From assembly GCA_946611605.1 (NCBI GenBank), contig CAMODU010000001.1:170-64169 (forward strand): a DNA stretch of 64,000 nucleotides. The letters run 5' to 3'. Below, in pieces: positions 9,580-28,772 of this stretch (position 1 is its first letter; the number at the start of each line of letters is the position of its first letter). The notes beneath the pieces are model-generated. The model ran no database searches and was not told the DNA's origin. It was given only the letters and a program-made list of their open reading frames with translations. The position numbers and the translations under genes were made by a program. The DNA comes from an uncultured bacterium (GTDB lineage Bacteria; Bacillota_I; Bacilli_A; RF39; UBA660).

Positions 9580-10468
9580 TTTCTATATATTTAATAGCAT
9601 TAGTGGCAGCAACAGCACCATCAGATGTAGCTGTAACTAATTGCCTTACTTCTTTAGTTCTATTATCACCTGCTACAAATATAAATGGTATATTAGTCTT
9701 ACAATCTTCATTAGCTATTACATAACCTTGATCATCTAGATTAATTATATTTTTATAATAATCATTTGAAGGTACTCTTCCTATAGCTACAAATAAACCA
9801 TCTATATTAATAGTATTAATAGAACCATCTTTATTAGTCACTTCTATACCAGTTAATTTATCATCACTTATTAATTTAGTTACTGTACTATTAAGTATTA
9901 ATTCTATATTATCTTTTTGTTTAATTAAATTAAATGATTTATCTTCTCCTCTGAATTCATCTCTTCTATGTATTATATATACTTTATTAGCTAAGTTAGA
10001 TAAATATAATGCATCTTCAAGTGCAGTATTACCTCCACCTACAACTGCTACATCTTTCCCTTTAAAGAATGCTCCATCACATGTAGCACAGTAAGACACT
10101 CCTTTACCTATTAATTCATCTTCATTAGGTAAACCTAACTTTCTATTATCTGATCCTGTAGCAATAATAATAGCTTTAGCATTATATTTATTATTAGCTG
10201 TAATAACTTCTTTATTATTAGTTATTTCTATTACTTTATCAAATACTATTTCAGCACCTAATTCTTTGGCTTGATTATATAAATTAGTTGCAAAGTCAAA
10301 TCCAGATATATGATTATTAGCTGGATAGTTTTCAATATCTAATGTATTAATTATTTGTCCACCATAAGATTTAGCTTCTAAAACTAATACACTCTTATTA
10401 GCTCTTCTTCCATATATAGCTGCAGTTAATCCTGCAGGTCCTGCTCCTATTATAATAATATCGTACAT
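9569..10468 (-). CDS. trxB: thioredoxin-disulfide reductase
   Basis: FAD motif IIGAGPAGLTAA, redox CATCDG, NADPH motif VAVVGGGNTALEDA. 299 aa. Confidence 0.9.
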   Translation of the reverse strand: MYDIIIIGAGPAGLTAAIYGRRANKSVLVLEAKSYGGQIINTLDIENYPANNHISGFDFATNLYNQAKELGAEIVFDKVIEITNNKEVITANNKYNAKAIIIATGSDNRKLGLPNEDELIGKGVSYCATCDGAFFKGKDVAVVGGGNTALEDALYLSNLANKVYIIHRRDEFRGEDKSFNLIKQKDNIELILNSTVTKLISDDKLTGIEVTNKDGSINTINIDGLFVAIGRVPSNDYYKNIINLDDQGYVIANEDCKTNIPFIFVAGDNRTKEVRQLVTATSDGAVAATNAIKYIESGE

Positions 10469-10469
10469 A

Positions 10470-10778
10470 TTATTTACCTCCTATGAAAGAATCTAATTCT
10501 GATCTAGATATTAAACCAACACTTCTATTTATTTCTTCACCATTTTCAATTAATACTAAACATGGTATAGAAGATATATTATATTTACTAGCTAATTCAT
10601 CTTCATTATCTACATTAATAGATACTATTTTAATATCATTATTGGATGTTGATATTTCTTCTAAAACAGGTTTCATCATTTTACATGGTCCACACCATTC
10701 AGCATTAAAATCAACTAATACTCTTTTTTCACTTTGTAATACTTCTTTATCAAAGTTATCTTTATTTACTTCTATCAT
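10470..10778 (-). CDS. trxA: thioredoxin
   Basis: WCGPCK active site, 102 aa. AGGAGG RBS inside the ohrR 3' end. TAATG 1-nt overlap with ohrR. Confidence 0.85.
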   Translation of the reverse strand: MIEVNKDNFDKEVLQSEKRVLVDFNAEWCGPCKMMKPVLEEISTSNNDIKIVSINVDNEDELASKYNISSIPCLVLIENGEEINRSVGLISRSELDSFIGGK

Positions 10779-11221
10779 TATTCTTCCTCCTTACTTAAGT
10801 TACCTACTATTTTATACATAAGAGAATATAATGTTTTAACTTCTTCTTCAGATAAGTTAATACATTTACCCATTTCACATGGAACAGATAAAGCTTTATC
10901 TCTTAAAGCTAATCCTTTTTTAGTAATAGTTACATCTAAGTTTCTTTCATCTTTTAATGATCTAGTTCTAGTAATATAATCTTTAGCTTCTAACTTCTTT
11001 AATAAAGGTGTTAAAGTACCTGAATCTAAGAATAAAGCATCACTTATATCTTTAACATTACTTGTATTATGTTCCCATAGATACATCATAGTTATATATT
11101 GAGTATATGTTAAATCTAAATCATCTAATAAAGGTGTATATCTTCTTATTATTTCTTTTGAACATAAATAAATAGGAAAACATAATTGATTCTTAAGAGT
11201 TAATGAATCATATTTATTCAT
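10778..11221 (-). CDS. ohrR: MarR-family organic hydroperoxide resistance regulator OhrR
   Basis: LKNQLCFPIYLCSKEIIRRYTPLLDDLDLTYTQYITMMYLWEH and DSGTLTPLLKKLE closely parallel B. subtilis OhrR (recalled from memory), including the sensing Cys in the QLCF motif. Confidence 0.8.
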   Translation of the reverse strand: MNKYDSLTLKNQLCFPIYLCSKEIIRRYTPLLDDLDLTYTQYITMMYLWEHNTSNVKDISDALFLDSGTLTPLLKKLEAKDYITRTRSLKDERNLDVTITKKGLALRDKALSVPCEMGKCINLSEEEVKTLYSLMYKIVGNLSKEEE

Positions 11222-11233
11222 ACAATCACTTCC

Positions 11234-11773
11234 TTATAATAATTCTAATATATCTTTTTCTATATTAGCTGGATCAAATGTAGGATCATATCTTTTAACA
11301 GCATTACCATCTTTATCAACTAAGAACTTAGTAAAGTTCCATTTAATATCTGATTGTTTCTTACATGTAGTACTTATCTTAGATACTGCTTTCATAGCCA
11401 TTTTATTCTTAAGTCCTACTATTTCTTCAGCAGGTTGTTGTTCTTTTAAGATTTTAAATACTTCAGATTCATTTTCACCATTTACATCTATTTTATCAAA
11501 TTGATCAAACTTAGTATTATATTTAGCAGTACAGAATTCATGTATTTCATCATTACTACCTGGTGCTTGATGTCCGAATTGATTACATGGGAAATCTAAC
11601 ACTTCAAATCCTTTGTCATGATATTTTTCATATAACTTCTCTATTCCTTCATATTGTGGAGTAAATCCACATCCTGTAGCAGTATTAACTACTAATGATA
11701 CTTTCCCTTTCAAATTATTTAAATCAAAAACACTACCAGATCTTGTTTTTACTTTTAAATCATATATATTCAT
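11234..11773 (-). CDS. gpx: glutathione peroxidase
   Basis: VVNTATGCGFTPQYEGIEKLYEKY and FPCNQFGHQAPG are classic Gpx motifs. AAAAGGAGA RBS. Confidence 0.85.
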   Translation of the reverse strand: MNIYDLKVKTRSGSVFDLNNLKGKVSLVVNTATGCGFTPQYEGIEKLYEKYHDKGFEVLDFPCNQFGHQAPGSNDEIHEFCTAKYNTKFDQFDKIDVNGENESEVFKILKEQQPAEEIVGLKNKMAMKAVSKISTTCKKQSDIKWNFTKFLVDKDGNAVKRYDPTFDPANIEKDILELL

Positions 11774-11846: not shown

Positions 11847-13394
11847 TTATTCACTAACTTCTTCTTTATTATCATTTCCAACTAAACCTAATTTATCTAG
11901 TTCATCATAGAATCTTACATCATTTATATCTAGATCAGAAATAGATAAATATTCATAGTTAATTAATTCTTGAATATCATCTATTACTTTATCTAAATGA
12001 TCAGGTTCTAATGTTTCAGGTTGTAGATTAAAGTCATTTAAATTATATTTATTAATTATTAATAATTTAATTTCTTTTTCATCTAATAAAGCTAAATGAT
12101 TTAATAAACTAAAATCTATATAATCTAAACTATCCTTTAATTCTTCAAAGTTAAATGTTATATCTTGTAATGGAATATTTTCATCATGTTTCTTATATTC
12201 ATATACAAAATATAAGTAATTAGATGTAATAAAATCAAATATAACATCTACACTTGAATCTTTAGATAACTTATTATAAATAGTATCATTGAAACATATA
12301 TCATCAAACTTATCAAACTTATCTAATAAAGATTTAATAGTTTCATTATAATTGAATAGCCATTTTTCATCACTCTTCTTCTTAAAGAATAATATAGGTT
12401 TCTTATCTCTACTAGCATTTAACTTTCTTATCTTGTTTTCATCTTGTTGTATTTCTTTAATAGCATTAGCTTTTAAACCTTTATAAGAATCTTTATTATC
12501 TAATCTTTCTTTCATATTATTAAGTAAGAAAGAATAATCTAATAATAATTTATATTCCAATAAAGAATACTTAAACTTAAGTAGATTTTCTAATGAATAA
12601 CCATTATCTTTAAAATATAAGTATTTAGTTTTAGCTATATCAGCATCATTAAAGTCACCTAATAGCCATTCCTTATTCTTAAATTTATTAAATAATATAT
12701 AAGGATCAACACTTTCAATATGTTCAATTTGATTAATTAATTTTTCTTTTAAATTCTTAATCTCTTGTTCTGAATGTTCTTTTAAGAATTCTTGATGTCT
12801 ATCAACATAGTATTTTTGTATTTTCTTTTCATATCTTATATATATACTCTTAAAATTAATCTCAATAATTTTAATTATTTCAGGAACATGCCAATAGAAA
12901 TCTTCGAAGGCATTAACTAATTCTTCTTCAGACTTATTATTAATAATCATATCAACATATATAGCAGCATGATGATTATAATCAAAGTCAGCCTTAGTTA
13001 ATTCTATTCCTACCTTCTTAAATGCATCTAATACTTTTCTAATTACTTGATTAATACTACGTAGATCTTCTTTATAGAATCTATGTAATTGATATAAGTA
13101 ATAATCTAAATGCATTTTTTCATATGGAGTATTATATTCATTCCATTCATTTAAAATATTACAATTTTCTAATTCCTTCTTTAGATTATCTATTTCAGGA
13201 TTAGGTTGATATACATCAAATCGAGTAAGACGAGATTTAATCTCATCTTCCACGATCTTTAATTGTTCATTTACTTCATTTTCTGCATCTAATACTACTT
13301 TTTCTCTTTTCTTTCTTTGATCAACTGTTTTAGTTGGTAAGACTTCAATGACACCTTTAAATTCTTCTATTTTATTTTCTAATTCTTCTATCAT
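11847..13394 (-). CDS. hypothetical acidic, largely alpha-helical cytoplasmic protein (515 aa)
   Basis: No TM or signal, no recognisable motif. Start overlaps the stop of the upstream 39-aa ORF (ATGA). Confidence 0.5.
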   Translation of the reverse strand: MIEELENKIEEFKGVIEVLPTKTVDQRKKREKVVLDAENEVNEQLKIVEDEIKSRLTRFDVYQPNPEIDNLKKELENCNILNEWNEYNTPYEKMHLDYYLYQLHRFYKEDLRSINQVIRKVLDAFKKVGIELTKADFDYNHHAAIYVDMIINNKSEEELVNAFEDFYWHVPEIIKIIEINFKSIYIRYEKKIQKYYVDRHQEFLKEHSEQEIKNLKEKLINQIEHIESVDPYILFNKFKNKEWLLGDFNDADIAKTKYLYFKDNGYSLENLLKFKYSLLEYKLLLDYSFLLNNMKERLDNKDSYKGLKANAIKEIQQDENKIRKLNASRDKKPILFFKKKSDEKWLFNYNETIKSLLDKFDKFDDICFNDTIYNKLSKDSSVDVIFDFITSNYLYFVYEYKKHDENIPLQDITFNFEELKDSLDYIDFSLLNHLALLDEKEIKLLIINKYNLNDFNLQPETLEPDHLDKVIDDIQELINYEYLSISDLDINDVRFYDELDKLGLVGNDNKEEVSE

Positions 13395-13510
13395 TTCTTC
13401 TCACCAGCCTCTTGATTCTTCTCGGCTTTTATTACATCTAAATAATCTAATAATAGACGATATAATTGTATTATTTCAGCATTAGATAAATCTTTAATTT
13501 TTTCTTTCAT
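13391..13510 (-). CDS. unannotated 39-aa ORF (MKEKIKDLSNAEIIQLYRLLLDYLDVIKAEKNQEAGEKK), translationally coupled (ATGA overlap) to the 515-aa gene
   Basis: Hand translation. GTGAGG RBS 8 nt upstream of ATG 13510. Lies 10 nt downstream of the giant gene stop. Confidence 0.4.
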   Translation of the reverse strand: MKEKIKDLSNAEIIQLYRLLLDYLDVIKAEKNQEAGEKK

Positions 13511-13520
13511 GTTGATAACC

Positions 13521-16500
13521 TCACTTTATAATTATATACCTAGTTACATCTCCAATGAAAGTAGAGTTGTCATATAGTTTAAATACTAATCTATATGTAC
13601 CTGTTGTCATTGTTTCTTTCATCTTAAATGAATAATCTATAGATGCAACTGGTCTACCAGATAATATGTATTCATGATTATTTTCAGATGGGGTTAATTC
13701 TTGATCTATAAAATCTTGTAAATCCACTTCAACATAATCAGTGTCATAATAATCATCATATGTTCTTCTATACATTTGAATTCTAGTATTAGGATTACTT
13801 AATAATGAATTATACTTAATATTAAAGTTCAATGATTTATCATTATTAGTTCCATTAAATATAACTGAATTATCACTTATAGTAGGATTAATACCATACT
13901 TACTATTGATAATAGTTTTATTCATTTCAAATGTATAAGATGTATCAGAGAAGTATATACCATCAGGAGATCCAAATGCTTCAAATACAAATTTATAATC
14001 ACCTGAAGGTAAGTTAGAATTTTCTGTATTGAATGTAATCCACTTTTTAACATTACCTACTTTTTCAGCAATACTCATATGTGTAATACCATCAATATCA
14101 GAATAATACTTAACTCCATCCATTTGGAAATAACATCCTGTAAGGTCAGTTCCTGATACTATATGACCATCTTCTGTTTCTAAATGTATTTGTAATCCTA
14201 ATTTAGAATCAAAGTATTGTGTATCTATTACTGCAGTTCCACTGTCAGATGAATTATGATAATCAATTGTTACATCCATATTATCATTATAACCAATATA
14301 TAATGTATTATTCTTAGATGTAGCTACACCATTAATAATTGAATCTTTATTAGCATATATATTATATGTTAATTGATTATGTTCAATACCTAATACAGTT
14401 ACTAAGGTTTCATCTTGATCATCTCTTAATTCAATTAATAACCTAGAATTCATTTTATCAGTTGTTATATTAGCATCTGATAAATCAACTATAAATATAA
14501 ATTCTTCTGAACTATCTCTTCCATCATAATAAATACTATTCATGTATTCATCATTATATTTCTGAGATGTATCATCTGTACCCATCCTTGTAAAATTAGA
14601 CAATGGATAAGATGCTTCATGATGAATTCTTAATTCATTTGTTGCTCTAGCCTCTTCATCAGGAGTAACTATATAGTAATAGTAATAAGGTTCATCATTA
14701 GTATAATCTATCATAGTTATTTTAGTATTAGTTGGGAACACAATATTTGAAGATAATACTCTATGATAACCTTCTTTATATAAATTATTGTTTTCTGAAT
14801 ATATAGAGTAATAAGCAGAGAATTTACTCTTAGCTGATATATTAGTTGTTGTTGATGCAAACAACTCATACTTATCACCTGGAGTCATAGCTCCTTCATA
14901 TTCATCAGTTTGGAATAATGCAGTAGACATATTAACATTGATAACTAATCTTCTTACTTTACTCTCTAATGCACTTTCCTTTGTTATTGCCATTATTGAA
15001 ATTCTAACAGTTCCTAATTCTTTCTCTTCAGAGATATTTTTAGAATGGTATAAATAGAAAAGCATAGTTGGAACATTGCTAGAGTTTTCACCTACATAAT
15101 AATCTTGTCCACTCATAGATGGTTCACCAGTATAGAATGAGGTCTTACCTTTTGTTAACCATCCAGAGTTTGATGCTTCCATAGATAAACCAAATACATT
15201 ATTTTCAGTTCCTTCACCTATTCTAGGTATTTGATCTTTATCCACTAATGATATACCATCAGCTACATCATTAGCATTTGAATTTAATATTTGGAATGAT
15301 GTATTAGGTGCAGAGAATTCTAAGAATGATAACTCTGTAGATCCTAATGTAGAATACTTAGATGCTACTAGATTAACATTATATTCAATAACATTCTCAC
15401 CTATAAACCACATATAGAAGTTTGAACTTTCTGGTGTTGGTTCAATATATTTAACTTCATTTATTAAAGTATCTTCATCCATATAATTAGAATAGAATCC
15501 ATTTACTCTAATATCATGATTAGTTTGATGTTTACCTAATACATATGAACCACGGTCAAATGTTTCAGCATATGAAACATGATCACCATTGTTAACTGTA
15601 TGAGAGTAAATACCTGTATGAACATGACCATTACCATCATAGTTATACATACCAAAGAATGACATACCTTGAACATCACCATAATCAGTAACTTGTTGGT
15701 CTCTTGCAATATTTAAGTTTTTACCTTCATACATATATATTCTATTATCAACATTACGAGTAACATTACCATCTTCTATTTGAACAGTAGCTAAGTTATC
15801 ATCTTTATCAACTGATCTATATACTTCAAGTAAGTTAGCACCTGCTTCTAAATATAAATCAGAATTATCTTTTAATGTTAATAATGGAACTCTTGATATA
15901 GCAAATAATTCTTTATCATAATCATTAGCTCTATCCATTGCACCTGTTAATATCATACTTGAGTTTTCTATAGTTGCATAAGTAACTCTTTGAATAGATA
16001 TATTCTTTTGAGGATTATCTCTTGATCCATAGTTCTTAATATTTAAGCAACTATCACCTGCAGATGTAGATGCATTACCACCACCATAGAAAGAACCATC
16101 TATTTTGTATGAATCATAATCAGTTGCATCAATATTAATTTCTGTTCCTTCTGTAACAGATATAAAGTACCAGTCATATATTTCAGATCCAGCAGCATTA
16201 GCTTCACCACCACCAAAGATATGACCTTTAATATATATTGGTGATTTAGTTAATCCATCCATAGATGATAAATTATTAGCTCCTATATTAACTAATGCAT
16301 TACCATTTATAACTGATGTATTAGCTCCACCATATACATTACCATATATTGTTCCACCTACTATATCAACAGTAGATGTAGAATTACCTAATTCAGTACC
16401 AGTGAAAGCTTTATTACCTCCACCAAATACACATCCAGATGCCGGAGTAATAGATTCAGGTGTACCAACAATTGTATTACCATCTACTACTATATGTGTA

Positions 16501-19500
16501 TTACCTTGTACTGTTGCACTGTTACCATTACCACCTGCATAAGCAGAACCACCTATTGTTACATCAGTAACATTAACATGTGTATTACCATATACAACAC
16601 CATAGTTACCTCCACCATAGATGTTACCAGTTATAGTACCTCCATTAATATCAACATGTGTATCTTCATTAACTGAAGCATAATTAGCTCCACCATAGAT
16701 ATCAGTAATGGTACCTTTAGTTAAAGTAATATTTGTATTACCTACATCAGCATTATTACCTCCACCATATACTTTATAGATTCTGCCATCAGTATTTATT
16801 TCTATTTGAGTACTTGGTACAGTACCAGTATTATTAGAACCACCATAAATATTATTGATATTACCACCATTAATATATACATGTGATTGATCTAATCCTG
16901 CTGAGTTTCCTCCACCAAAGATAGTACCTATTTCACCATTATTAATATTTAATGTAGTATTACCACTGTTGGCTTGATTACCTCCACCATAAATTGTATT
17001 AGTTCTACCACCATTATAATTAATAGTTGAAGTAATAGTGTTACCACCAGCATTATTACCACCAAAGATATTATCAATAGTACCTGTTGTTACATTTATA
17101 GTTGATGTATTAACAGTTCCTGATGAATTAGATCCACCAAAGATATTTCCATATTCACCAGTTACTATATCTAAATTAACAGTAGTAACACTTGCTGAAT
17201 TACCTCCACCATATACATTATTAATTTTACCTGTATGTGTTTTAATTGATACATTAGATGTAGCAGTATTAACTTCATTACCACCACCATAGATATCTCC
17301 TATAGAAGCAGTACCTTCAACAGTAATATTAGATGTATTACATGTACCACCTTTATTATTTCCACCAAAGATAGAACCAATAGTACCAGCATTAATTAAT
17401 AATGTTGTTGATGTAACATTACCTGAGTTATTAGAACCACCATAGATATTTGTTACATTAGAACCATTAGCATATACATGTGTATTAGTAACTCCTGATG
17501 AATTACCTCCACCAAATACATTTGTTATAGTTCCACCATTTAAATAAATATTATTATCTTTTGAATGTGATCCAGCTAAATCGTTACCACCATATACATT
17601 AGTTACATTACCACCATTAATATCAACTTCAATATTACCTAATACATATGGAGTATATTGATTACTACCTTCACCACCACCAAATACTGAACCAGTTACA
17701 ATACCATTATGAACAATTACTTTAGTATTACCACCAGCAGTAGATTGATTAGTTGTAGTACCATTAACAGTACCATATCCAGAACCACCATATACATTAC
17801 CTTTAATAGTTGGTACATTTAATATTTCTTCTTGTCCAACTACTACATTTGTATCCTTAGCAATAAATGTGTTTTGACCTTTACCACCACCATAGACATT
17901 TGTATTGATAGTTCCATCTTTAATATTTAAGTTTGTAGAACCATATATAGTACCAGATACATTAGATCCACCAAATATATTACCTAATACAGTTCCACCT
18001 GTTTGATTGATAGTAACTGTAGCACTCTTATTATTAGTACCAGCACCATTTTGGTTACCACCACCATAGACATCTTGTCTAATAGTACCACCTAAGATAT
18101 TAATAATTGTTTCAGTAGTATTAGAAGAACTAGATACACCAGTTGCACCATAGTTACCTCCACCATATACTGAACCTTTAATATCAGCATTACCATCTAT
18201 TATTAAATATGAGTTATCATTTGATCCAATACCAGAGTATCCACTCTTACCATTACCATTACCAAATACTGAACCAGATGCTATACCCCACATCTTAGTA
18301 TTATTACTTACTAATGTATCATCACCTATAGTTGCATTACCACCGATATAAATATATGATGAACCATTTACTGTACCATCTCCATCATTGGCATCACTAC
18401 CAGAACCATTAGATCCACCTAGTACACCATAATTAACTTTACCACCAGTAACAGAAATAATACGGTTACCATAAGTAGGAGATCTACCTGCACCACCAAT
18501 GATAACATCAACATTACCACCAGTCATATAAATATATGTATCATTATAAGATGCTCTAGATGAGTCTGTTAATGGACCACCAATCATATTGTTGACCCAT
18601 CCACCTTCCATCTTAATCTTTCTTGCAGCATAATGAGTACCACCAGTTAATCCACCAACATAGATACCTGTATACATATCGGCTTGAGATGTACCAAACT
18701 TACCACTCTTAACAGTTAAGTCTGTAGCACACTCTTCAGTTGATCTAACAGTACCAGAGAATGATGATGCAGCTTCATAATAAACTGATAAGTTATTATT
18801 ATCCGGATCTAATATTTTATCTATATCAGAACCAAATGTTGTTTTGTTAGCTACATATATAGATGCACTTGTATTATATGGAAGTGTTAAAGCAGTTGAA
18901 CTGAAATGACCTGATTCAATAATCATATTATATTTAGTTGAACTACTAGATGATCCTGTACTAGAAGATCCACCCCATATATAATCAAATGTTGCATTGT
19001 TTGTATTATATTGTTTAATACCTCTACCAAGTTTTAAATTATGCCAGTTAGCATTTAAGGTTGCATAGTATGTTGTACTACCGAACCATCCACCAGATGA
19101 AGCACTAGTTTGAGGATCGACAGTATTAAATTGTTTACTGTTATAAATAGTTAAATGTTCAATAGTAGTATCATTGTATAAAGTTATATTATTACTTGTA
19201 ACAGACCAATCATATGTTGTTTGTCTTCCATTATGTAATCCTGTTAAAGTAAATGGTTTATTATTACCACTATCCCAATAAGATGTAATATCACCAGTTA
19301 AATAAGCTATATTAGTATCTCTTGTAACTAAATAATAATATTCTCTACCAAAATCTACAACTGGTCTATTACCATTTTCATCATATGATTGTAATAATTC
19401 ATAGTAAGTACATTTAGCTTGATTACATGTACCTGATACTTGATTACCACTTAAATCATAATAACCTGCATAAGACGTTCCACGGTCGAAGTCTCTTTCC

Positions 19501-21290
19501 ATATATAAACCAGCAGTAACAAAATCATCATTTACTACTCTAGTAGTTTCACAATCTAAATGATATTGAGATGTATCTAATTGATACATATTATTATTAC
19601 TGTAATAATAATATGTTTCCCCAGGAACAAATTGTTCATCATCTTCTATTTCTTCATAGTAAGGGCATCCATTACGAGAATTACAATATCTAGAAGTTGT
19701 ATAAGTATATCTACCATTACTTTGTCGATAATATCCAGTATAGTATGAATATCTAGGAGCAACTTGATAAGTATAATATCCTTGCATTGAAGGTCCAGTA
19801 CAATCAGTTCTAGTTGTTTCTACTCTCTTTAATCCAGGACTATCAAATTGATCAAATGCATAATCCCAATTATTTCCAGATAAGCCATATTCATTTGCAT
19901 CAATCCAACTAGCATGGAAGTTTACTGCAACGGGATCATATTCACCATTTTCATTAGGTGCTACATTGAATTCAGCAAATCTTTCATATCTAATTCTATC
20001 AATTGATATAGTAACACCAGTTACATCACTTATCCAGTTATTAAATCCTTTACCATTAGGTCTATTAGTAAATGGATTATCTACAAGTAATAATTTAACC
20101 TTACCATTTTCTACAGGTACATAATGATAATAAACTATCTTATTATAATTTTCAGTAGATGAAACAGTACCAGTTAATGTAGTTCCATTATTTTGTTCTA
20201 TACCTGAATAAGATACCATAACTTTTATTAAGTTATGTGAATTATACTTATTCTTATTTTCCATAGTTGGTAATTTACTAATATCTGATGAAGCATAGTT
20301 ATAACCAGTATAATAATTTAAATCATTAACTAAATCATTAACATATAATGTTGTACCATCAGAACCAGTAGAATGTTCACTATAATCACCAGATATAATA
20401 GTTGGTTCATATGGATTTTCCTCATCTTGTAATGAGAACTCACCATTGTTAATGAATATCTTATATTGTCCATTACCCATTCTATCTAATATAGTTGGAT
20501 CATCTAAGACTAATGTATTACCTTCTACTTTATACTTATTAACTTGTAAGTCTGCTGGTTTTTGAACGAAGTCATCCCATTCAGCATATCTAGTAATAAT
20601 ATTTTCATATATATCAGTTCCTGTAGCATAAGCTACATTATAAGTATTATTAGCAGTACAATTATCTTTAAAGTTATTCATTAATACAATATTCTTAAAT
20701 GTTGAATTAACAGATGAATAAGTAATACCACCAAATAAATTGTTTTCATCTGATTTATATATGTTTTGTTTAATAATAACTGTATCAACAACTGTATTAC
20801 CAATTGTTCTAGATAAGAAACCACCTTGATAATCATTTAAATAATAATCTATATCATCATATTCAACATTCTTAATAGTTGCATTAGCTAAGTTATAAAA
20901 TAATCCATTAGTAACTGATGCATTATACAATGCATGACCTTGTCCATCAAATACACCTTGGAATGTAGTCCAGTTACCAATACTGATATCATGACCACCA
21001 AAGTTTAAATCAGCAGTAACAACATAATACTTATTAACATATATCCATGAATCATATCCTTCAAGTAATTCTTTCATGTACATGTATTCACCAGGAGTGG
21101 ATATTTCATAAGGAGATTCTTCAGTACCAGTTCCTGATTTAAAAGATGTAGCAACTACTCCATCCCATGCAGAAGAAGTAGTCTTTCTAGAATATGAGAT
21201 ACTTAAAATCCATAGTGATCCTACGGCTAAAATTAACAGCAATAACACTAGTATTTTCTTAGATTTAATCCCGTTCACTAAATCTTTCAT
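13521..21290 (-). CDS. giant (2589 aa) secreted/surface protein with central Gly-rich parallel beta-helix-type repeats (Pmp/autotransporter-passenger-like), putative adhesin or fibre protein
   Basis: N-terminal K-rich/hydrophobic signal ending ...LWILSISYSRKT. About 25-30 tandem ~21-aa repeats of the form xIYGG(G/S)NxxGxVxxTxInI. Asn/Thr/Tyr-rich flanking domains. Confidence 0.7.
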   Translation of the reverse strand: MKDLVNGIKSKKILVLLLLILAVGSLWILSISYSRKTTSSAWDGVVATSFKSGTGTEESPYEISTPGEYMYMKELLEGYDSWIYVNKYYVVTADLNFGGHDISIGNWTTFQGVFDGQGHALYNASVTNGLFYNLANATIKNVEYDDIDYYLNDYQGGFLSRTIGNTVVDTVIIKQNIYKSDENNLFGGITYSSVNSTFKNIVLMNNFKDNCTANNTYNVAYATGTDIYENIITRYAEWDDFVQKPADLQVNKYKVEGNTLVLDDPTILDRMGNGQYKIFINNGEFSLQDEENPYEPTIISGDYSEHSTGSDGTTLYVNDLVNDLNYYTGYNYASSDISKLPTMENKNKYNSHNLIKVMVSYSGIEQNNGTTLTGTVSSTENYNKIVYYHYVPVENGKVKLLLVDNPFTNRPNGKGFNNWISDVTGVTISIDRIRYERFAEFNVAPNENGEYDPVAVNFHASWIDANEYGLSGNNWDYAFDQFDSPGLKRVETTRTDCTGPSMQGYYTYQVAPRYSYYTGYYRQSNGRYTYTTSRYCNSRNGCPYYEEIEDDEQFVPGETYYYYSNNNMYQLDTSQYHLDCETTRVVNDDFVTAGLYMERDFDRGTSYAGYYDLSGNQVSGTCNQAKCTYYELLQSYDENGNRPVVDFGREYYYLVTRDTNIAYLTGDITSYWDSGNNKPFTLTGLHNGRQTTYDWSVTSNNITLYNDTTIEHLTIYNSKQFNTVDPQTSASSGGWFGSTTYYATLNANWHNLKLGRGIKQYNTNNATFDYIWGGSSSTGSSSSSTKYNMIIESGHFSSTALTLPYNTSASIYVANKTTFGSDIDKILDPDNNNLSVYYEAASSFSGTVRSTEECATDLTVKSGKFGTSQADMYTGIYVGGLTGGTHYAARKIKMEGGWVNNMIGGPLTDSSRASYNDTYIYMTGGNVDVIIGGAGRSPTYGNRIISVTGGKVNYGVLGGSNGSGSDANDGDGTVNGSSYIYIGGNATIGDDTLVSNNTKMWGIASGSVFGNGNGKSGYSGIGSNDNSYLIIDGNADIKGSVYGGGNYGATGVSSSSNTTETIINILGGTIRQDVYGGGNQNGAGTNNKSATVTINQTGGTVLGNIFGGSNVSGTIYGSTNLNIKDGTINTNVYGGGKGQNTFIAKDTNVVVGQEEILNVPTIKGNVYGGSGYGTVNGTTTNQSTAGGNTKVIVHNGIVTGSVFGGGEGSNQYTPYVLGNIEVDINGGNVTNVYGGNDLAGSHSKDNNIYLNGGTITNVFGGGNSSGVTNTHVYANGSNVTNIYGGSNNSGNVTSTTLLINAGTIGSIFGGNNKGGTCNTSNITVEGTASIGDIYGGGNEVNTATSNVSIKTHTGKINNVYGGGNSASVTTVNLDIVTGEYGNIFGGSNSSGTVNTSTINVTTGTIDNIFGGNNAGGNTITSTINYNGGRTNTIYGGGNQANSGNTTLNINNGEIGTIFGGGNSAGLDQSHVYINGGNINNIYGGSNNTGTVPSTQIEINTDGRIYKVYGGGNNADVGNTNITLTKGTITDIYGGANYASVNEDTHVDINGGTITGNIYGGGNYGVVYGNTHVNVTDVTIGGSAYAGGNGNSATVQGNTHIVVDGNTIVGTPESITPASGCVFGGGNKAFTGTELGNSTSTVDIVGGTIYGNVYGGANTSVINGNALVNIGANNLSSMDGLTKSPIYIKGHIFGGGEANAAGSEIYDWYFISVTEGTEINIDATDYDSYKIDGSFYGGGNASTSAGDSCLNIKNYGSRDNPQKNISIQRVTYATIENSSMILTGAMDRANDYDKELFAISRVPLLTLKDNSDLYLEAGANLLEVYRSVDKDDNLATVQIEDGNVTRNVDNRIYMYEGKNLNIARDQQVTDYGDVQGMSFFGMYNYDGNGHVHTGIYSHTVNNGDHVSYAETFDRGSYVLGKHQTNHDIRVNGFYSNYMDEDTLINEVKYIEPTPESSNFYMWFIGENVIEYNVNLVASKYSTLGSTELSFLEFSAPNTSFQILNSNANDVADGISLVDKDQIPRIGEGTENNVFGLSMEASNSGWLTKGKTSFYTGEPSMSGQDYYVGENSSNVPTMLFYLYHSKNISEEKELGTVRISIMAITKESALESKVRRLVINVNMSTALFQTDEYEGAMTPGDKYELFASTTTNISAKSKFSAYYSIYSENNNLYKEGYHRVLSSNIVFPTNTKITMIDYTNDEPYYYYYIVTPDEEARATNELRIHHEASYPLSNFTRMGTDDTSQKYNDEYMNSIYYDGRDSSEEFIFIVDLSDANITTDKMNSRLLIELRDDQDETLVTVLGIEHNQLTYNIYANKDSIINGVATSKNNTLYIGYNDNMDVTIDYHNSSDSGTAVIDTQYFDSKLGLQIHLETEDGHIVSGTDLTGCYFQMDGVKYYSDIDGITHMSIAEKVGNVKKWITFNTENSNLPSGDYKFVFEAFGSPDGIYFSDTSYTFEMNKTIINSKYGINPTISDNSVIFNGTNNDKSLNFNIKYNSLLSNPNTRIQMYRRTYDDYYDTDYVEVDLQDFIDQELTPSENNHEYILSGRPVASIDYSFKMKETMTTGTYRLVFKLYDNSTFIGDVTRYIIIK
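16050..18600 (-). repeat. intragenic tandem repeat array (DNA period ~63-66 bp) encoding the Gly-rich beta-helix rungs
   Basis: Recurrent ACCACCACCATA / ATATCC...ACC words on the plus strand. Boundaries are approximate. Confidence 0.5.
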
Positions 21291-21371
21291 ACCTATGCTC
21301 CCATTTTCTATTATACCTATAATTATTTTACCATAAAACGATATAAAAAGTCTTTAATAATCGCATAAAAA

Positions 21372-21393
21372 AAGAAGATATTTCTATCTTCTT
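21372..21393. terminator. rho-independent terminator separating the fibre locus from the giant gene
   Basis: AAGAAGAT-atttct-ATCTTCTT preceded by A7 (T7 on minus) and followed by TTTTAT on plus. Confidence 0.55.
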
Positions 21394-21404
21394 TTTATAA
21401 TCTA

Positions 21405-22406
21405 TTAGTCAGTTATAGCAAATTGTAAATTATAAGAAATACTAGCTCCTGTTGCATAGTTTTCACAATCGATATCTTGTCCTTCAACCCACATGTAAAT
21501 TCTCATCTTAGTTACACCTGCAGAAAGACTAAATACTTGTTTATAATCTTCAACTTTATTACCATCAGCATCTAATTCAGTACCAAATGCGGCTAATGTA
21601 GCTAAATCTGGAGTAACTAATTCTGAATTATCAGTATTAGTACCATTAACTGTTTCAATTAATGATTGAGGAGTAGTAAATGCTCCATTAATACCATAAT
21701 AAGGAGTCTTATCATTAGCAACTAATGATACACCATATGTTGATGATAATTGATTCTTAACTGTATCAGCATGTGCATCAGCATTTGGTTCCCAAATGAA
21801 TGCTTTAGCAGCAGCAGAATTGTTTAATTTAATTAACTCACCTGGAGCTTTAGATGCATCTCCAGTACCAATTTCAACAAATGCTACACGAGCAGAGTTT
21901 TGTAATCCCTTATCAGTATCTTTATTAACTACTGATGAGTTTTGAGTTAAATAAATTTGTTCATCTTTATCAACTTTTAAGAATACATCAAATGCTACAA
22001 ACTTACCATTTGCAGATGTAGTTGATGCTTCATTTTCTTTATTAGTGAAAATAGTATAATTACCTTCATCATCGTTTCCGATTACTCCACTATACATATC
22101 CATTAAATGGTTAGTAATAGCACCATTTGTAGATACAGCAGTAACTGTTGCAGGTAATATGTTATTAGCACCAGCATAACCAGATGTAATATCATCATTA
22201 GTTATAACAGTCTTCCATGTACTTGCATCAGTAGATATTTGTAATCCGTTACTAGCTTCTACTTTAACATCAATTTGATTGATTGTTACTACACGGTTAG
22301 CAGTAAACCATGCATATGTTGATGTACCTAACATTACTACAGTAATAAGTAATAATAGGATCAACAAACTTAATTTCTTTTTGTTTTTCTTTTGTTTCTT
22401 TGCCAT
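21405..22406 (-). CDS. TasA/CalY (camelysin, peptidase M73)-like secreted protein with SipW-cognate-type signal
   Basis: N-terminus MAKKQKKNKKK + hydrophobic + GTSTYAWFTAN, compared to TasA GGGTWAAFND. C-terminal ...RIYMWVEGQD...ISYNLQFAITD resembles the CalY/TasA terminal strands. GAAGGAGA RBS. Confidence 0.55.
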   Translation of the reverse strand: MAKKQKKNKKKLSLLILLLLITVVMLGTSTYAWFTANRVVTINQIDVKVEASNGLQISTDASTWKTVITNDDITSGYAGANNILPATVTAVSTNGAITNHLMDMYSGVIGNDDEGNYTIFTNKENEASTTSANGKFVAFDVFLKVDKDEQIYLTQNSSVVNKDTDKGLQNSARVAFVEIGTGDASKAPGELIKLNNSAAAKAFIWEPNADAHADTVKNQLSSTYGVSLVANDKTPYYGINGAFTTPQSLIETVNGTNTDNSELVTPDLATLAAFGTELDADGNKVEDYKQVFSLSAGVTKMRIYMWVEGQDIDCENYATGASISYNLQFAITD

Positions 22407-22408
22407 AA

Positions 22409-23131
22409 TTATTCTCCTTCTTGTTCAATATGTTCTTCTGTAATTTTCATACGCATTTTTAATTCTCCACCAATAAGTGGATCAGTACAGTCAGGATCAT
22501 CACCCTCAAGCCATACTACAATAGTCATCTTATCAAAATCACCTGGTCTGAAATTTTCTCTTTTCTCTAAGATAATAGTTCCGTTATCTCCATCGATTTC
22601 TTTGAATCTAGTAGTTCCAGGTTCTGCTTCATCTGCTATTGAATTCTTTTTAGCATATGTTACATACTCGCCATTAAGATATATTCTGAATCTAACAGCT
22701 TCATCAACATTCTTAATAACGTCATCGATTATTACTTCGTACCAATAATTTAATACGTCTTTCCCCTGATTCTCAATGAAGAAAGTATAAGCAATATAGT
22801 TTTCTCCATTATGAGAGCCTTCATAGTTTCCATCTATATCATCAGGTAACCATTTATAGGAAATATTATCCATAAATTTAATTGGTATTGCTTCGAGTTT
22901 CCTTTTAGGTTGAGAATTATTTAAGCTATCAAATATAGCAAGCCCACTATTAATTGTTTCTTGAGAATCCAATGTAATAGTAAAACTACCTTGACTATAA
23001 GCAATGCTTAATATTCCGTAAAGACATATCAAAAACAGCAATAACACTAATGATGTAATCTTTACTACTCTAGAAGTAACTTTCTTCCTTTTGACTTTAT
23101 CAGCGGTTACTATTACATTTTTACCAAACAT
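22409..23131 (-). CDS. TasA-like paralog (start trimmed to MFGKN...)
   Basis: GGTGGTGGA RBS before ATG 23131. KRKK + hydrophobic + GILSIAYSQGSF. C-terminal TIVVWLEGDDPD motif. Confidence 0.45.
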   Translation of the reverse strand: MFGKNVIVTADKVKRKKVTSRVVKITSLVLLLFLICLYGILSIAYSQGSFTITLDSQETINSGLAIFDSLNNSQPKRKLEAIPIKFMDNISYKWLPDDIDGNYEGSHNGENYIAYTFFIENQGKDVLNYWYEVIIDDVIKNVDEAVRFRIYLNGEYVTYAKKNSIADEAEPGTTRFKEIDGDNGTIILEKRENFRPGDFDKMTIVVWLEGDDPDCTDPLIGGELKMRMKITEEHIEQEGE

Positions 23132-23349
23132 AATCCACCACCACAAAATATTTCTATATGACACCCTTCTATCATACAATCTCATTATAATTCAAACACA
23201 GATTTTTATCAATATCAATTTATAATAATTATTCCTTTTTACGATACTAGTCAGTATATATTTACGTCAAATACAATATACTTTATATTATATTTACATT
23301 ATATGGTTTTTAGCATGATAAAATAATAGTATAGGAAGGGATGTATATT

Positions 23350-23946
23350 ATGAGTAATATACTAAATAATAAGCGTATTAATCTATTTATAGCACTTATA
23401 TCATTGCTATTACTCATTACAATGGTACAAAATACATATGCTAAATATGTATCTAGTGCTAATGCAGATACTAACTTCACAATAGCAACATGGGCATTCG
23501 TAATCAATAGACAAGATGTATTAAGTAATTCCAACTTTAGTAATACTATTACACCAGTATTTATCAACAATGATAATATTAAACAAGGTGTTATAGCTCC
23601 TACTTCAGAAGGATATTTTGATTTAGCAATTGATGCTTCTGGAACTGATGTATCATTTACTGAAACTATAACAGTTGCTAATTCAGTAAATAATAAAATA
23701 AGTGATTTAAAGATAACTGGATATCAAATAAATGGTGGAGATTTAGTTGAATTCACTGAAACAACAAATACCATTACTACAGATCATTTATTAAGCGATC
23801 ATACAAGAACAACTACATATCGTATATTTATTAAATGGTATGATGGCGAAGGCGAAAACATGGATAACCAAGCCGATACTCAAGCATCACTTAATGATAC
23901 TGCTAAAGTAAACGTTAATGTCGGGTTCATACAAAAAGCTAATTAG
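23350..23946 (+). CDS. TasA-like paralog (only plus-strand member)
   Basis: GGAAGGG RBS. MSNILNNKR + hydrophobic + NTYAKYVSS. C-terminal YRIFIKWYDGEGEN. Confidence 0.45.
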   Translation: MSNILNNKRINLFIALISLLLLITMVQNTYAKYVSSANADTNFTIATWAFVINRQDVLSNSNFSNTITPVFINNDNIKQGVIAPTSEGYFDLAIDASGTDVSFTETITVANSVNNKISDLKITGYQINGGDLVEFTETTNTITTDHLLSDHTRTTTYRIFIKWYDGEGENMDNQADTQASLNDTAKVNVNVGFIQKAN

Positions 23947-23955
23947 TATTACTAA

Positions 23956-24588
23956 TTAGCTATTATTTTGTGTAATTATTACTTTTATTCTTAAAGTTAT
24001 GCTGGATAAATCAGGATGACTTTTTTTATAGTTACTAGCTATTATTCCCCATCTAGTATCTTCCTCATCATCACCAGTTTCAAATGGCCATACAACATTA
24101 AAATTATATGTTGCAATACCATCATGTGAAGATATATTAGTACTAGATATTCCAACTGTAATAGTAAAAGGATAATTATTAGCTAGTTTATTTAATAACT
24201 CAGCTGATGTCATATCTCCTTCTTGCACTTCTTCTTTTCTTGATTCTCTACCCTCAACTGTTATATACGTATCATCAAATATTCTAGCTTCCAACACTTC
24301 ATATGATAATGTAGCATCTACATCACCTTGGTTTCTAGCTTGTAAGCTATATACATAATCTTCCATACCTGGGTATATACTATCAACATCTAGATTAACA
24401 TAATCTTCTACAGCTTGTTCACCTGCTTGGAATAATACATTCCACGCTCTAACATGAACATCAACCTTATTATCTACTTTAGTAGTATATATAAACCATG
24501 CAAAGGTATTACCTACAACTAAGAATAAGATGAATATTAACCTAAGAATTATAAATTTTTTATTTGTCTTCTTTCTTTGGTTCTTCAT
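23956..24588 (-). CDS. TasA-like paralog
   Basis: MKNQRKKTNKK + hydrophobic + GNTFAWFIY. C-terminal FNVVWPFETGDDEED...ITLRIKVIITQ. Confidence 0.5.
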   Translation of the reverse strand: MKNQRKKTNKKFIILRLIFILFLVVGNTFAWFIYTTKVDNKVDVHVRAWNVLFQAGEQAVEDYVNLDVDSIYPGMEDYVYSLQARNQGDVDATLSYEVLEARIFDDTYITVEGRESRKEEVQEGDMTSAELLNKLANNYPFTITVGISSTNISSHDGIATYNFNVVWPFETGDDEEDTRWGIIASNYKKSHPDLSSITLRIKVIITQNNS

Positions 24589-25123
24589 CTTCTTCAGAAT
24601 CCTTTACAAATAATCCTCTTAATAAATCAAACGCAATAGATAAACCTACTATTACAAATATTCCATAGTAGACTGTATTATTTTGCATTAATCTACCTAA
24701 GAAACTTAATATAATTGAATGATATAATACTTTACCATATATCATATCACCAGATATTTTAGGATCTTCTACATCGTTTGCTATACCTTGAGTAGTAAAT
24801 GTATATTTACCATTATTCTCATCTATTTTTATAATTCTATGTGTTATAACTATTCCTTTATTATATCCATTAGGATCACTTTTATAAGTAACATCATCAC
24901 CTACTTTATAAGTAGATACATCTTGTTTCTTAACAACTATTAAATCACCTATTTTATATTCAGGTTCCATTGATCCTGATACTACTTGGAATATATAAAA
25001 ATTACCTATAGTTAAATTGTTTTTAGTAGTTCTTTGTAATATAACAATAGCTAACATAATAATTAATAATATAGTTATAATTATTCTTATTATATTAAAA
25101 GTTTTCATCACTACTTTTTTCAT
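24560..25123 (-). CDS. sipW: signal peptidase I, SipW/ER-type (S26B)
   Basis: TM anchor then VVSGSMEPEYKIGDLIVV (Ser nucleophile), ITHRII (His), ANDVEDP, and a C-terminal TM. Confidence 0.75.
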   Translation of the reverse strand: MKKVVMKTFNIIRIIITILLIIMLAIVILQRTTKNNLTIGNFYIFQVVSGSMEPEYKIGDLIVVKKQDVSTYKVGDDVTYKSDPNGYNKGIVITHRIIKIDENNGKYTFTTQGIANDVEDPKISGDMIYGKVLYHSIILSFLGRLMQNNTVYYGIFVIVGLSIAFDLLRGLFVKDSEEDEEPKKEDK

Positions 25124-25127
25124 AATA

Positions 25128-26246
25128 TCATCCCAAATCTATATTTTCTATTCTCTCTAGATAAGCTTTAATACTAGTTGAGAACACATTTTCAATTTCA
25201 GATAAACTAGCTTCTCTTTTAAATCTAGTAATAGCTATCTTATCTCCTATTTTCTTCTTTAATTGTTCCATATCTAAATCAGTATTTAATTCTACTATTC
25301 TTTGAATTAAGTTATCAGTTATTTCTTCAACTGCTCTATCTTTATCTTCTTTAGATTTAACATTACTTAATGTATTCATAGCAACATAATCCATTAAGAA
25401 AGTATTATTAATATACTCTTTTAAGATACCATTATCTTCATAATCTTTTTTACTCTTAACTATTTTAGTATCATCATCTGTATGAGCTTGTAGATAATCC
25501 CATAGTTTCATTGCATATTGGAAGTTAGTATTCTTTAAGATAACATTAGTCTTTTTAATTGGAGGTATTACTTTAGCTACATGAGCTTTATGTAATAACT
25601 TATATGTTTCCTCAGATTGAAGCATTTTAATGTCATCTTCAAGTCTTTTAACTCTTTCCTCAATAGATAATTCACCTTGTTCTTCTTCTTTATCTATTAA
25701 AGATGAAGTATAGTAAAATTCCATTGAAATTTGTTCTTTACCTACTTTACTCTTAGCATGATATTCAGCCTTCTTTATATCCTTATAACTAGAACCATTT
25801 ACTAATGTTTTCTTTTTTAATTCTACAAAGTTAGCCATATTATTTACTAAAGTATATATTAATCTGTTTTCATATGTATCATATGATTCATCTTTATTAA
25901 TATTTAAGATTTTAGATGGTTTAACATCACCATTATCTTCAATCTTTTGAATCATATTTGTATGTTTAGCTAAATGTCTAATACTTTCAACAGTAACTCT
26001 TCTAGCTAATTCAACTTTAACTATTTCTTCTTCATTTATAATGAATCTATTTGGGTTTCTAAAAATATTATCTATATATTTAACAGTATCTTCCATTAGG
26101 TCAAGCCATTCAAAACTTGTTTCTACTTTCTTTATATCAGTAGAAATGTTTAAACTTGATCTAGTATTATTTAAGAAACTAGTTTTATTAGTTTTATGGT
26201 CATCATAATATAAATCTATTATTTTTAAATCACCCATAGATATCAT
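25128..26246 (-). CDS. hypothetical cytoplasmic protein (372 aa), candidate partner of the McrB-like NTPase
   Basis: Coiled-coil-rich, no TM or signal. No nuclease motif recognisable by eye. 2-nt spacing to the upstream ATPase gene. Confidence 0.4.
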   Translation of the reverse strand: MISMGDLKIIDLYYDDHKTNKTSFLNNTRSSLNISTDIKKVETSFEWLDLMEDTVKYIDNIFRNPNRFIINEEEIVKVELARRVTVESIRHLAKHTNMIQKIEDNGDVKPSKILNINKDESYDTYENRLIYTLVNNMANFVELKKKTLVNGSSYKDIKKAEYHAKSKVGKEQISMEFYYTSSLIDKEEEQGELSIEERVKRLEDDIKMLQSEETYKLLHKAHVAKVIPPIKKTNVILKNTNFQYAMKLWDYLQAHTDDDTKIVKSKKDYEDNGILKEYINNTFLMDYVAMNTLSNVKSKEDKDRAVEEITDNLIQRIVELNTDLDMEQLKKKIGDKIAITRFKREASLSEIENVFSTSIKAYLERIENIDLG

Positions 26247-28762: not shown

Positions 28763-28772
28763 AAGACCACTC

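Follow-up and report, generated by a model that had tools for sequence, protein, structure and literature searches.

The 64,000-nucleotide stretch of DNA analysed here, hereafter the window (contig CAMODU010000001.1 of assembly GCA_946611605.1, from an uncultured bacterium of the RF39 lineage), encodes a protein of 2589 amino acids (aa) and about 280 kDa, referred to as the giant. Its gene belongs to a cluster of approximately 16 genes (~20 kb, window 11847-32232), which also encodes SipW-type signal peptidases, an McrB-like GTPase and several small exported proteins. With moderate confidence, we consider the giant to be a large extracellular component of a structure built by this cluster, probably cut by a SipW-type peptidase and attached to the cell by way of the small exported proteins. 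The open reading frame (ORF) of 2589 aa was proposed in a first-pass annotation made from the sequence alone, and it is borne out by the ORF list and the translation:

13521-21290, minus strand: giant ORF, 2589 aa, ATG start (ORF list, translation, 68 full-length homologues and 350 stretches confirmed by tblastn)

In the mechanism that we propose, the protein would be exported by the Sec route through an N-terminal signal of the type found in the small exported proteins of the cluster, and would then be cut after S-Y-S34, probably by peptidase paralogue 1 or 2, both predicted to be active SipW-type enzymes. The rod that it would form outside the cell would start with an optional IgA1-protease-like domain and an all-beta module, continue as a beta-solenoid with ~45 turns and end in a stalk built from immunoglobulin (Ig)-like domains. 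Because the giant is devoid of an anchor of its own, it would be held on the cell by joining the structure formed by the small exported proteins, possibly as its distal or adhesive element; the tip adhesin, or passenger for the fibres, put forward in the first-pass annotation is thus a possible role.

Conserved linkage and composition of the cluster

Scanning one genome per GTDB species gave 494 pattern-matched stretches, 350 of which encode a relative of the giant according to tblastn; 80 of these were fetched, and neighbourhoods were obtained from 84-86 loci in total. When the cluster proteins of the window were compared by tblastn with 84 loci, each of them turned up no more than 10 kb from the giant in 47-72 loci, most absences falling at contig ends; where the flanks are long enough, nearly every locus has these genes beside the giant. 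The highest count was that of a 515-aa protein (72/84), followed by the small exported proteins of 333 aa (70/84), 201 aa (70/84) and 258 aa (69/84), the McrB-like protein (65/84), a DUF2357 protein (63/84) and the three SipW paralogues (63, 64 and 58 of 84). Gene order is permuted in blocks, with retention of the linkage: in locus L002 the giant block stands before the peptidase/McrB block, while in the window it stands after it. The two most distant giants (31% identity; loci L085 and L086) have the same neighbours. Linkage kept through such rearrangements is strong evidence for a shared function. The giant family was not found away from SipW in the 86 loci examined; the SipW linkage suggested by the first-pass annotation is conserved across them, including the 31%-identity relatives. 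The same annotation had placed the gene adjacent to a fibre locus, which holds as far as the linkage is concerned but understates it, since the giant is an integral member of the cluster.

Conservation is uneven among the linked genes. Where the giants of two loci share only 31-41% identity, their McrB-like GTPases still share 64-76%, and with identities of 64-80% the GTPase is far better conserved than the other genes of the cluster; its relatives above 75% identity number at least hundreds among the matches listed.

The cluster genes around the giant are the following; the assignments of the small exported proteins and of the 335-aa protein rest on their sequences and orthologues, those of the 39-aa and 515-aa ORFs on coordinates and sequence.

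11847-13394, minus strand: 515-aa protein, without signal
13391-13510, minus strand: 39-aa ORF, without signal
21405-22406, minus strand: 333-aa small exported protein
22409-23185, minus strand: 258-aa small exported protein
23341-23946, plus strand: 201-aa small exported protein
23956-24588, minus strand: 210-aa small exported protein
24560-25123, minus strand: SipW-type signal peptidase 1, with SGSMEP and THR motifs (TIGR02228, 9.7e-27)
25128-26246, minus strand: DUF2357 (McrC N-terminal domain) protein (DUF2357, 8.2e-10)
26248-27771, minus strand: McrB-like GTPase, 507 aa, with N-terminal membrane span and coiled coil (match to McrB in PDB)
27785-28792, minus strand: 335-aa protein, without signal
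28773-29693, minus strand: 306-aa small exported protein
29696-30283, minus strand: 195-aa small exported protein
30292-31125, minus strand: SipW-type signal peptidase 2, with long charged C-terminal tail (TIGR02228, 1.1e-18)
31152-31706, minus strand: 184-aa small exported protein
31681-32232, minus strand: SipW paralogue 3, with catalytic Ser and His positions replaced by DNDQLEP and YTGEV (BLAST to peptidase 1, alignment)

Alignment of the three peptidase paralogues revealed that the first two retain SGSMEP and ITHR. Paralogue 3 is different, and both positions are replaced also in its orthologues from three other loci (L002:19853-20413, L004:19841-20365 and L086:21990-22493): DNDQLEP, NSDEMEP or SNNELEP is found in place of SGSMEP, and G or A in place of His. 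We take these positions to be the catalytic Ser and His of S26 peptidases, and paralogue 3 is presumed to be a conserved, catalytically dead pseudo-peptidase. In locus L003 a SipW paralogue just upstream of the giant gene (L003:8770-9984) has 404 aa, consisting of the peptidase and a long extension. The genes for the 306-, 195- and 184-aa exported proteins interleave with that of peptidase 2.

The 507-aa protein matches the AAA+ domain of Escherichia coli McrB over aa 192-365 (E 4e-4, PDB search) and carries GTINNDD at the position of the McrB NxxD signature; a hydrophobic span at aa ~54-80 is followed, by eye, by a heptad-like stretch.

On the other side of the giant gene, the 39-aa ORF begins 10 nt past the giant stop codon and overlaps the 515-aa ORF by 4 nt. 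An ORF of 34-45 aa and one of ~500-540 aa also adjoin the giant gene, or lie near it, in L002, L003, L004, L085 and L086; in L003 the pair, of 45 and 542 aa, precedes the giant rather than following it. Neither the 39-aa nor the 515-aa protein, the latter helical, has a match in Pfam or PADLOC. From this arrangement the pair appears to be translationally coupled to the giant gene, and it is predicted to be cytoplasmic; its role may be that of a dedicated chaperone, or of a component of the machine on the cytoplasmic side.

Among 127 small exported proteins of the clusters, Pfam revealed no family common to more than two members. In the 333-aa family the signal is followed by TYAWFTAN, which hardly varies, and the C-terminus carries a block that does not vary at all, RIYMWIEGQDVDCEN, in which one Cys is conserved; a similar block, W-x-EG-D-D-x-DC, forms the end of the 258-aa protein. 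Between the convergent genes for the 201-aa (plus strand) and 210-aa (minus strand) proteins, a perfect inverted repeat of 11 bp, bordered by a T-run at either end (window 23937-23961), looks like a bidirectional terminator inside the cluster.

Two sets of genes lie just outside the cluster. A GGDEF gene 4 kb past it (36110-37186, minus strand), for a multi-span membrane diguanylate cyclase with a GGEEF motif, was rejected as a conserved neighbour, since no more than 2 of the 86 loci have a relative of it close to the cluster. Directly downstream (9569-11773, minus strand) are genes for a glutathione peroxidase (Gpx), a MarR-type regulator, a thioredoxin and a thioredoxin reductase; this redox set is not conserved beside the cluster elsewhere, the Gpx query matching only L001, which is the window sequence itself.

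The signal sequence and competing explanations

The N-terminus of the giant contains KKILVLLLLILAVGSLWILSISYSRKTT at aa 11-38, and the portion quoted by the first-pass annotation, MKDLVNGIKSKKILVLLLLILAVGSLWILSISYSRKTT, reads as given there. Directly after the hydrophobic core, S-Y-S is found at aa 32-34, followed by R-K (SYS-RKTT); in the family alignments the core is followed by [TS]-[YFLW]-[STG]. All ORFs of at least 90 aa in the loci and in the window were scored for an N-terminal hydrophobic segment followed by [TS][YFW][AGSC]. The motif is present in 46 of the 57 giants with a hydrophobic segment, and it prevails in the families of the 333-aa (78/83), 201-aa (47/51), 184-aa (32/47), 210-aa (31/49) and 306-aa (30/59) proteins; it is found in 16/56 members of the 195-aa family, in 1/64 of the 258-aa family and in 1-8 members of each SipW paralogue. 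Among unrelated ORFs that begin with a hydrophobic segment, 10 of 132 carry it. The giant shares the signal type of most small exported proteins of the cluster. The two groups differ in what follows: the giant consensus is [TS][YF][SG] and then E-K-T-T-S-S-x-W-D-G, that of the small proteins [TS][YF][AGS]-x-[FY]. Whether the motif of the giant varies together with that of the small proteins was examined in the divergent loci L085, L086 and L004, of which L004 gave a suggestive but not decisive case.

The description of this N-terminus as a SipW-cognate-like signal thus stands in one respect, since the motif is the cluster's own type (46/57 vs 10/132), and fails in another, since the SipW-signal model TIGR04088 gives no match (0/37). 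The special likeness once drawn to the product of gene 22409-23131 (ILSIAYSQGSF) is peculiar to this genome: the 258-aa family conserves IIYxxGxFTVTLD instead of the motif, as its count of 1/64 indicates. A standard type I signal with an AxA site, and grouping with unrelated adhesins without SipW linkage, had been named as the outcome that would refute the idea; neither is seen, since what follows the core is SYS-RKTT, with no AxA site, and the linkage is kept in the loci examined.

Several results weigh against cleavage by SipW and attachment through the small proteins. TIGR04088, whose curated cut-off is 19 bits, does not match the first 80 aa of the giant, and at E<=10 it matches none of 37 giant-family N-termini; the 333-aa protein of the cluster itself reaches only 15.3 bits, below that cut-off. 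The aromatic residue at P2' is absent here (R-K) and in most giants, where the small proteins have F or Y; the giant consensus after the motif is E/A and then K/L, although a minority of giants do carry the P2' aromatic. Phe at P2' is reported for TasA (PMC10269814). An ordinary type I signal peptidase would equally accept T or S at -3 and S, G or A at -1, and the hydrophobic core, with its 19 residues, is long enough for a membrane anchor.

To the same side belongs the nature of the small proteins, for which neither homology to TasA nor fibre formation could be demonstrated, nor could the first-pass annotation's naming of the neighbours as TasA-like paralogs be substantiated. Peptidase_M73, the Pfam family of TasA and camelysin, is found in 0/127 of them; profiles of the 333-aa and of the 201/184-aa families gave nothing significant against PDB; hhalign against Bacillus subtilis TasA gave E values of 0.32 and 0.19, with an approximate TasA sequence as query. 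The likeness to TasA is at the level of motifs only: besides the signal, it concerns a strand that contains PG and, at the C-terminus, an alternating strand whose last residue is Q. Moreover, hhalign of the small-protein profiles against the giant C-terminus detected no relation.

The main rival explanation is a surface fibril anchored by its own signal, in which an uncut N-terminal segment would hold the rod in the membrane, projecting alone, and the motif after the helix would serve otherwise, for example in recognition by the dead SipW paralogue or by the machinery. The 19-residue core is flanked by basic residues, and no other anchor was found, be it LPxTG, a C-terminal membrane span or a wall-binding domain; the missing P2' aromatic and the lack of a TIGR04088 match point in the same direction. 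Conversely, the small residues at -3 and -1 are conserved in relatives with 31-60% identity and are common to the small proteins, as in a cleavage site, and two peptidases predicted to be active are encoded in the same cluster. On balance we regard a retained signal anchor as rather unlikely, and prefer a giant cut by SipW and held through the small exported proteins.

The McrB-like and DUF2357 genes suggest another explanation, in which they would form a restriction-like module and the giant would be the surface part of an anti-phage or inter-bacterial system. Indeed, the GTPase matches not only McrB but also the PADLOC candidate defence family PDC-M26A (6.5e-37), and DUF2357 is the N-terminal domain of McrC. 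Nevertheless, no nuclease domain was detected in the DUF2357 protein, five other cluster proteins tested have no match in PADLOC, and the giant has no toxin-like domain in Pfam or NCBIfam; the GTPase is membrane-anchored and 64-80% identical across species, unlike fast-evolving, patchy defence genes, and the cluster is present in nearly all loci examined. A role in conflict or defence is accordingly improbable.

A stand-alone adhesin, processed by an ordinary signal peptidase and placed beside the SipW locus by chance, would find its best argument in the intergenic region, where a terminator-like element is present between the giant gene and the fibre locus, as the first-pass annotation had claimed:

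about 21366-21396, minus strand: AT-rich hairpin followed by a T-run, separating the giant gene from the 333-aa gene upstream (sequence, RNA fold)

The predicted RNA fold has -22.3 kcal/mol, with a z of -3.2 against shuffles; a consensus terminator scan did not pick the hairpin up because it contains few G-C pairs. Downstream of it and before the giant gene are TATAAT (21310-21315) and GGGAG (21298-21302), both consensus matches only. The hairpin and the -10-like box would thus set the giant apart from the upstream genes. Against this stand the linkage, which outlasts the block rearrangements in dozens of loci taken from different bins, and the signal motif held in common with the cluster. The protein encoded at 41964-43691 (minus strand; 575 aa, with a repeat-rich middle and a C-terminal membrane span) has a classic signal (GVFA/APVEY), and the genome therefore uses ordinary signals outside the cluster. 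A chance neighbour is strongly disfavoured, and we attach very little probability to it. Even less probable is a prophage tail-fibre or tailspike-like gene, disfavoured although beta-helix proteins are common in phage tailspikes, since the viral structure library gave no significant match (best E 0.011, TM 0.09), no phage genes occur in the neighbourhoods and the chromosomal context is conserved.

Architecture and distribution of the giant family

The giant can be divided into the following parts, all on the minus strand, with their main evidence in brackets.

21189-21290, minus strand: aa 1-34, basic n-region, 19-aa hydrophobic core ILVLLLLILAVGSLWILSI, then S-Y-S, with putative cleavage after Ser34 (sequence, family motif)
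20391-21173, minus strand: aa ~40-300, accessory N-terminal domain (WDG..ATSF..G.GT..PY.IS), absent from many relatives (3n6z profile match)
19341-20393, minus strand: aa ~300-650, all-beta region peculiar to the family, in which pairs of Cys are conserved and some stretches are rich in Tyr (AlphaFold 2 model)
15651-19343, minus strand: aa ~650-1880, predicted long beta-solenoid (rung table, motif spacing, short-strand DSSP at both modelled ends)
16035-18188, minus strand: aa 1035-1752, regular core of the predicted solenoid (rung table)
13524-15653, minus strand: aa ~1880-2589, predicted chain of Ig-like beta-sandwich domains, ending ...YIIIK, without anchor motif (AlphaFold 2 model)

The accessory domain is the part related to a solved structure: a family profile built on 25 full-length relatives matched one PDB entry, 3n6z, annotated as a putative immunoglobulin A1 protease (E 1.3e-10, profile positions and aa 47-165). 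The alignment spans less than 5% of the giant, in a domain that many relatives do not have, and implies no protease function. Conservation is even from aa 300 to the end, with aa 40-300 variable; many of the 80 loci align to the query only from residue ~277-330 onward, and in relatives without the accessory domain the signal is followed almost directly by a conserved VYVNDL block.

AlphaFold 2 models cover aa 300-905 and aa 1745-2589. The first (13-row alignment; pLDDT 88.1, pTM 0.81) is all-beta, and Foldseek found nothing similar to it at E<0.07 in PDB or at E<0.01 in BFVD (best viral E 0.011). Its strands become short and periodic from ~aa 650 (YYYLVTRDTNI), which is read as the start of the solenoid. 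The second model (18-row alignment; mean pLDDT 85.2) has short strands of solenoid type to ~aa 1885 and then a series of beta-sandwiches, for which Foldseek gave only generic multi-Ig matches in PDB (integrins, complement, pilins, transglutaminases; TM <=0.17). For the intervening centre, aa 905-1745, a solenoid is suggested by the rungs in the sequence.

Gly amounts to 20-24% between aa 900 and 1700. Strict [YF]GG[GSNA] rungs number 24, between aa 1035 and 1752, and looser xGG motifs 34 in aa 900-1760. At aa 1226-1550 there are 14 consecutive rungs of 24-26 aa each, with a period of ~25 aa and the consensus G-x-[IV]-x-x-[IV]-[YF]-G-G-[GS]-N-x-x-G-x-V-x-x-T-x-[IV]-x-[IV]. The beta-helix array of the first-pass annotation is recovered as far as the central Gly-rich rungs are concerned (24 strict, 34 loose), but not with a rung length of ~21 aa, the regular rungs having 24-26. 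About 28-34 rungs are recognised in all by motif, and both modelled ends have short-strand patterns; the solenoid would have roughly 45 turns. At ~0.48 nm per rung, ~45 rungs and several Ig-like domains would make, as a rough estimate, a rod of a few tens of nm.

The large Asn/Tyr-rich flanks described earlier were confirmed (Tyr reaches 20% in aa 501-600), as was the absence of a cell-wall sorting signal: [LIVS]Px[TSA]G occurs nowhere in the giant, which has no LPxTG-like motif, no C-terminal hydrophobic run and no C-terminal span of sortase type. No second uncharged run of at least 17 residues resembles a membrane span; the other long uncharged run, at aa 728, is rich in Ser, Thr and Gly and unlike one.

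In the family libraries searched the giant has no match. The whole giant has no family in Pfam and NCBIfam at E<=1, TIGR01376 and PF02415 included; seven segments gave nothing meaningful at E<=10; pectate-lyase-like beta-helix repeat models had no Pfam match in the whole protein or in the segments; and phmmer with three segments found nothing in PDB. The profile searches for Pmp repeats (TIGR01376) and pectate-lyase-like beta-helices, which the first-pass annotation had pointed to, thus gave no match, and its assignment to the Pmp/autotransporter-passenger type finds no support, with neither TIGR01376 nor PF02415 matched and the C-terminus modelled as Ig-like sandwiches instead of a barrel.

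The idea of a recombinogenic array has fared no better. Tandem Repeats Finder detected no DNA-level array in the rung region, even at score 30, and the rungs have therefore diverged at the DNA level. As for the number of repeats, close relatives keep the length of the giant, one with 81% identity having 2589 aa and one from the 90% cluster 2590 aa; across species the segment aligned to aa 900-1760 has 779-1332 aa and 21-47 xGG motifs. Rung number therefore drifts slowly, over long times, and is constant among these close relatives.

The homologue search found 68 full-length relatives of 2323-3052 aa, with identities of 31-81%, none of which has a Pfam domain. In public records the giant and its neighbours are labelled 'hypothetical protein', and one relative 'beta strand repeat-containing protein'. 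A profile of aa 300-905 matched 313 proteins at E<=0.001 among 1.84 billion cluster representatives; the full-length ones have 2300-3400 aa, with the match near the N-terminus, and profile positions 1-350 are matched mainly in long proteins, along with shorter entries that are possibly fragments.

All the 80 fetched loci come from metagenome bins. The labels of most are Bacilli, Mollicutes, Tenericutes, Mycoplasmatota or Erysipelotrichaceae; a few are labelled as other phyla (Muribaculaceae, Sphaerochaetaceae), which may be mislabelled bins. The record titles name goat, sheep and roe deer gut, chicken, rabbit ('Lapin') and Hadza human gut, and rumen samples are included. Two of the contigs bearing a relative are of ~1.26 Mb, one a closed circular genome of 1,256,474 bp and the other of 1,256,952 bp; in a genome of this size the giant gene accounts for ~0.6% and the 20-kb cluster for ~1.6%.

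Implications and comparison with known systems

More tentatively, and with clearly less confidence than for the role of the giant itself, the whole cluster can be pictured as an appendage-building machine, in which a membrane-bound, restriction-derived McrB-like GTPase, together with two active SipW-type peptidases and a dead one, would export and assemble the subunits and the 280-kDa rod. If this were true, the cluster would be the main surface organelle of many uncultured gut bacteria with small genomes (~1.26 Mb), and the giant its shaft or tip. That genomes of ~1.26 Mb retain a 7.8-kb gene and a 20-kb cluster, and that the loci come from rumen, chicken, rabbit and human gut, speaks for a central role, for which attachment to the surface of a host or partner is the most plausible candidate. 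It also becomes testable whether a McrBC-type GTPase of DNA restriction was recruited for assembling a surface structure.

Long beta-solenoid surface proteins are already known, as is a named linkage between McrBC and signal peptidases. New with respect to the literature and libraries searched are a large family without Pfam or NCBIfam match, which is a constant member of the cluster and has the cluster's signal type, the presumed dead peptidase paralogue and the apparently coupled, predicted cytoplasmic pair; the modelled aa 300-905 module is new with respect to the two structure libraries searched, where it has no significant match.

The Pmp proteins of Chlamydia, autotransporter passengers and the filamentous haemagglutinin (FHA) of two-partner secretion resemble the giant in their long Gly/Asn-rich stack of rungs and flanking domains. 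The giant differs from them in that their repeat models do not match it and in that it lacks both a C-terminal barrel and a two-partner-secretion domain; its rung motif is GxIxx[IV][YF]GG[GS]N, not the GGA[ILV]/FxxN of Pmp, and its host bins carry labels of Gram-positive type (Bacilli, Bacillota).

In the tapA-sipW-tasA operon of B. subtilis, a signal peptidase of the archaeal/endoplasmic reticulum type is encoded with its substrates, which carry T-[YFW]-A after the hydrophobic core. The likeness to the window lies in a dedicated peptidase encoded with substrates and in a larger accessory protein, TapA, of the same signal type. Conversely, the neighbours in the window have no detectable sequence similarity to TasA, the peptidase paralogues are three and are accompanied by a McrBC-like pair and cytoplasmic partners, and the accessory protein has 2589 aa and no P2' aromatic. 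The operon, with its TasA fibres and accessory TapA, is also covered in PMC10269814 and PMC10151520.

A further parallel, taken up here for its signal-peptidase homologue within an appendage locus, is with the pili of Streptococcus pyogenes. SipA of this species is itself not known to be active as a peptidase, and paralogue 3 of the window has both presumed catalytic positions replaced. The streptococcal system relies on sortases and LPxTG pilins, in contrast to the giant, which has no LPxTG, and the peptidase belongs to another subfamily. SipA/LepA, which is signal-peptidase-like, is essential for pilus polymerisation in S. pyogenes (PMC4049620).

The closest comparison is with CoCoPALM. Bell et al. 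(2024, eLife) described a clade in which McrB GTPases of the NxD type carry a fused FtsB-like segment with membrane and coiled-coil parts (PMC11090510). They named this clade, whose McrBC-like GTPase genes are linked to 'pilus assembly' genes of the signal-peptidase family, CoCoPALM, and deferred its description (PMC11090510). That paper is silent on a giant beta-helix protein, small exported proteins, a dead peptidase paralogue and a pair of 39-aa and 515-aa proteins, and the literature searched has no mention of CoCoPALM beyond this 2023-24 CoCoNuT paper. The window has an NxD-type McrB GTPase (GTINNDD) fused to a membrane span and a coiled coil, a McrC homologue (DUF2357, 8.2e-10) and genes of the signal-peptidase family (TIGR02228). 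By these sequence features its cluster fits the CoCoPALM type, a class that would thereby gain, in the giant, a concrete extracellular product.

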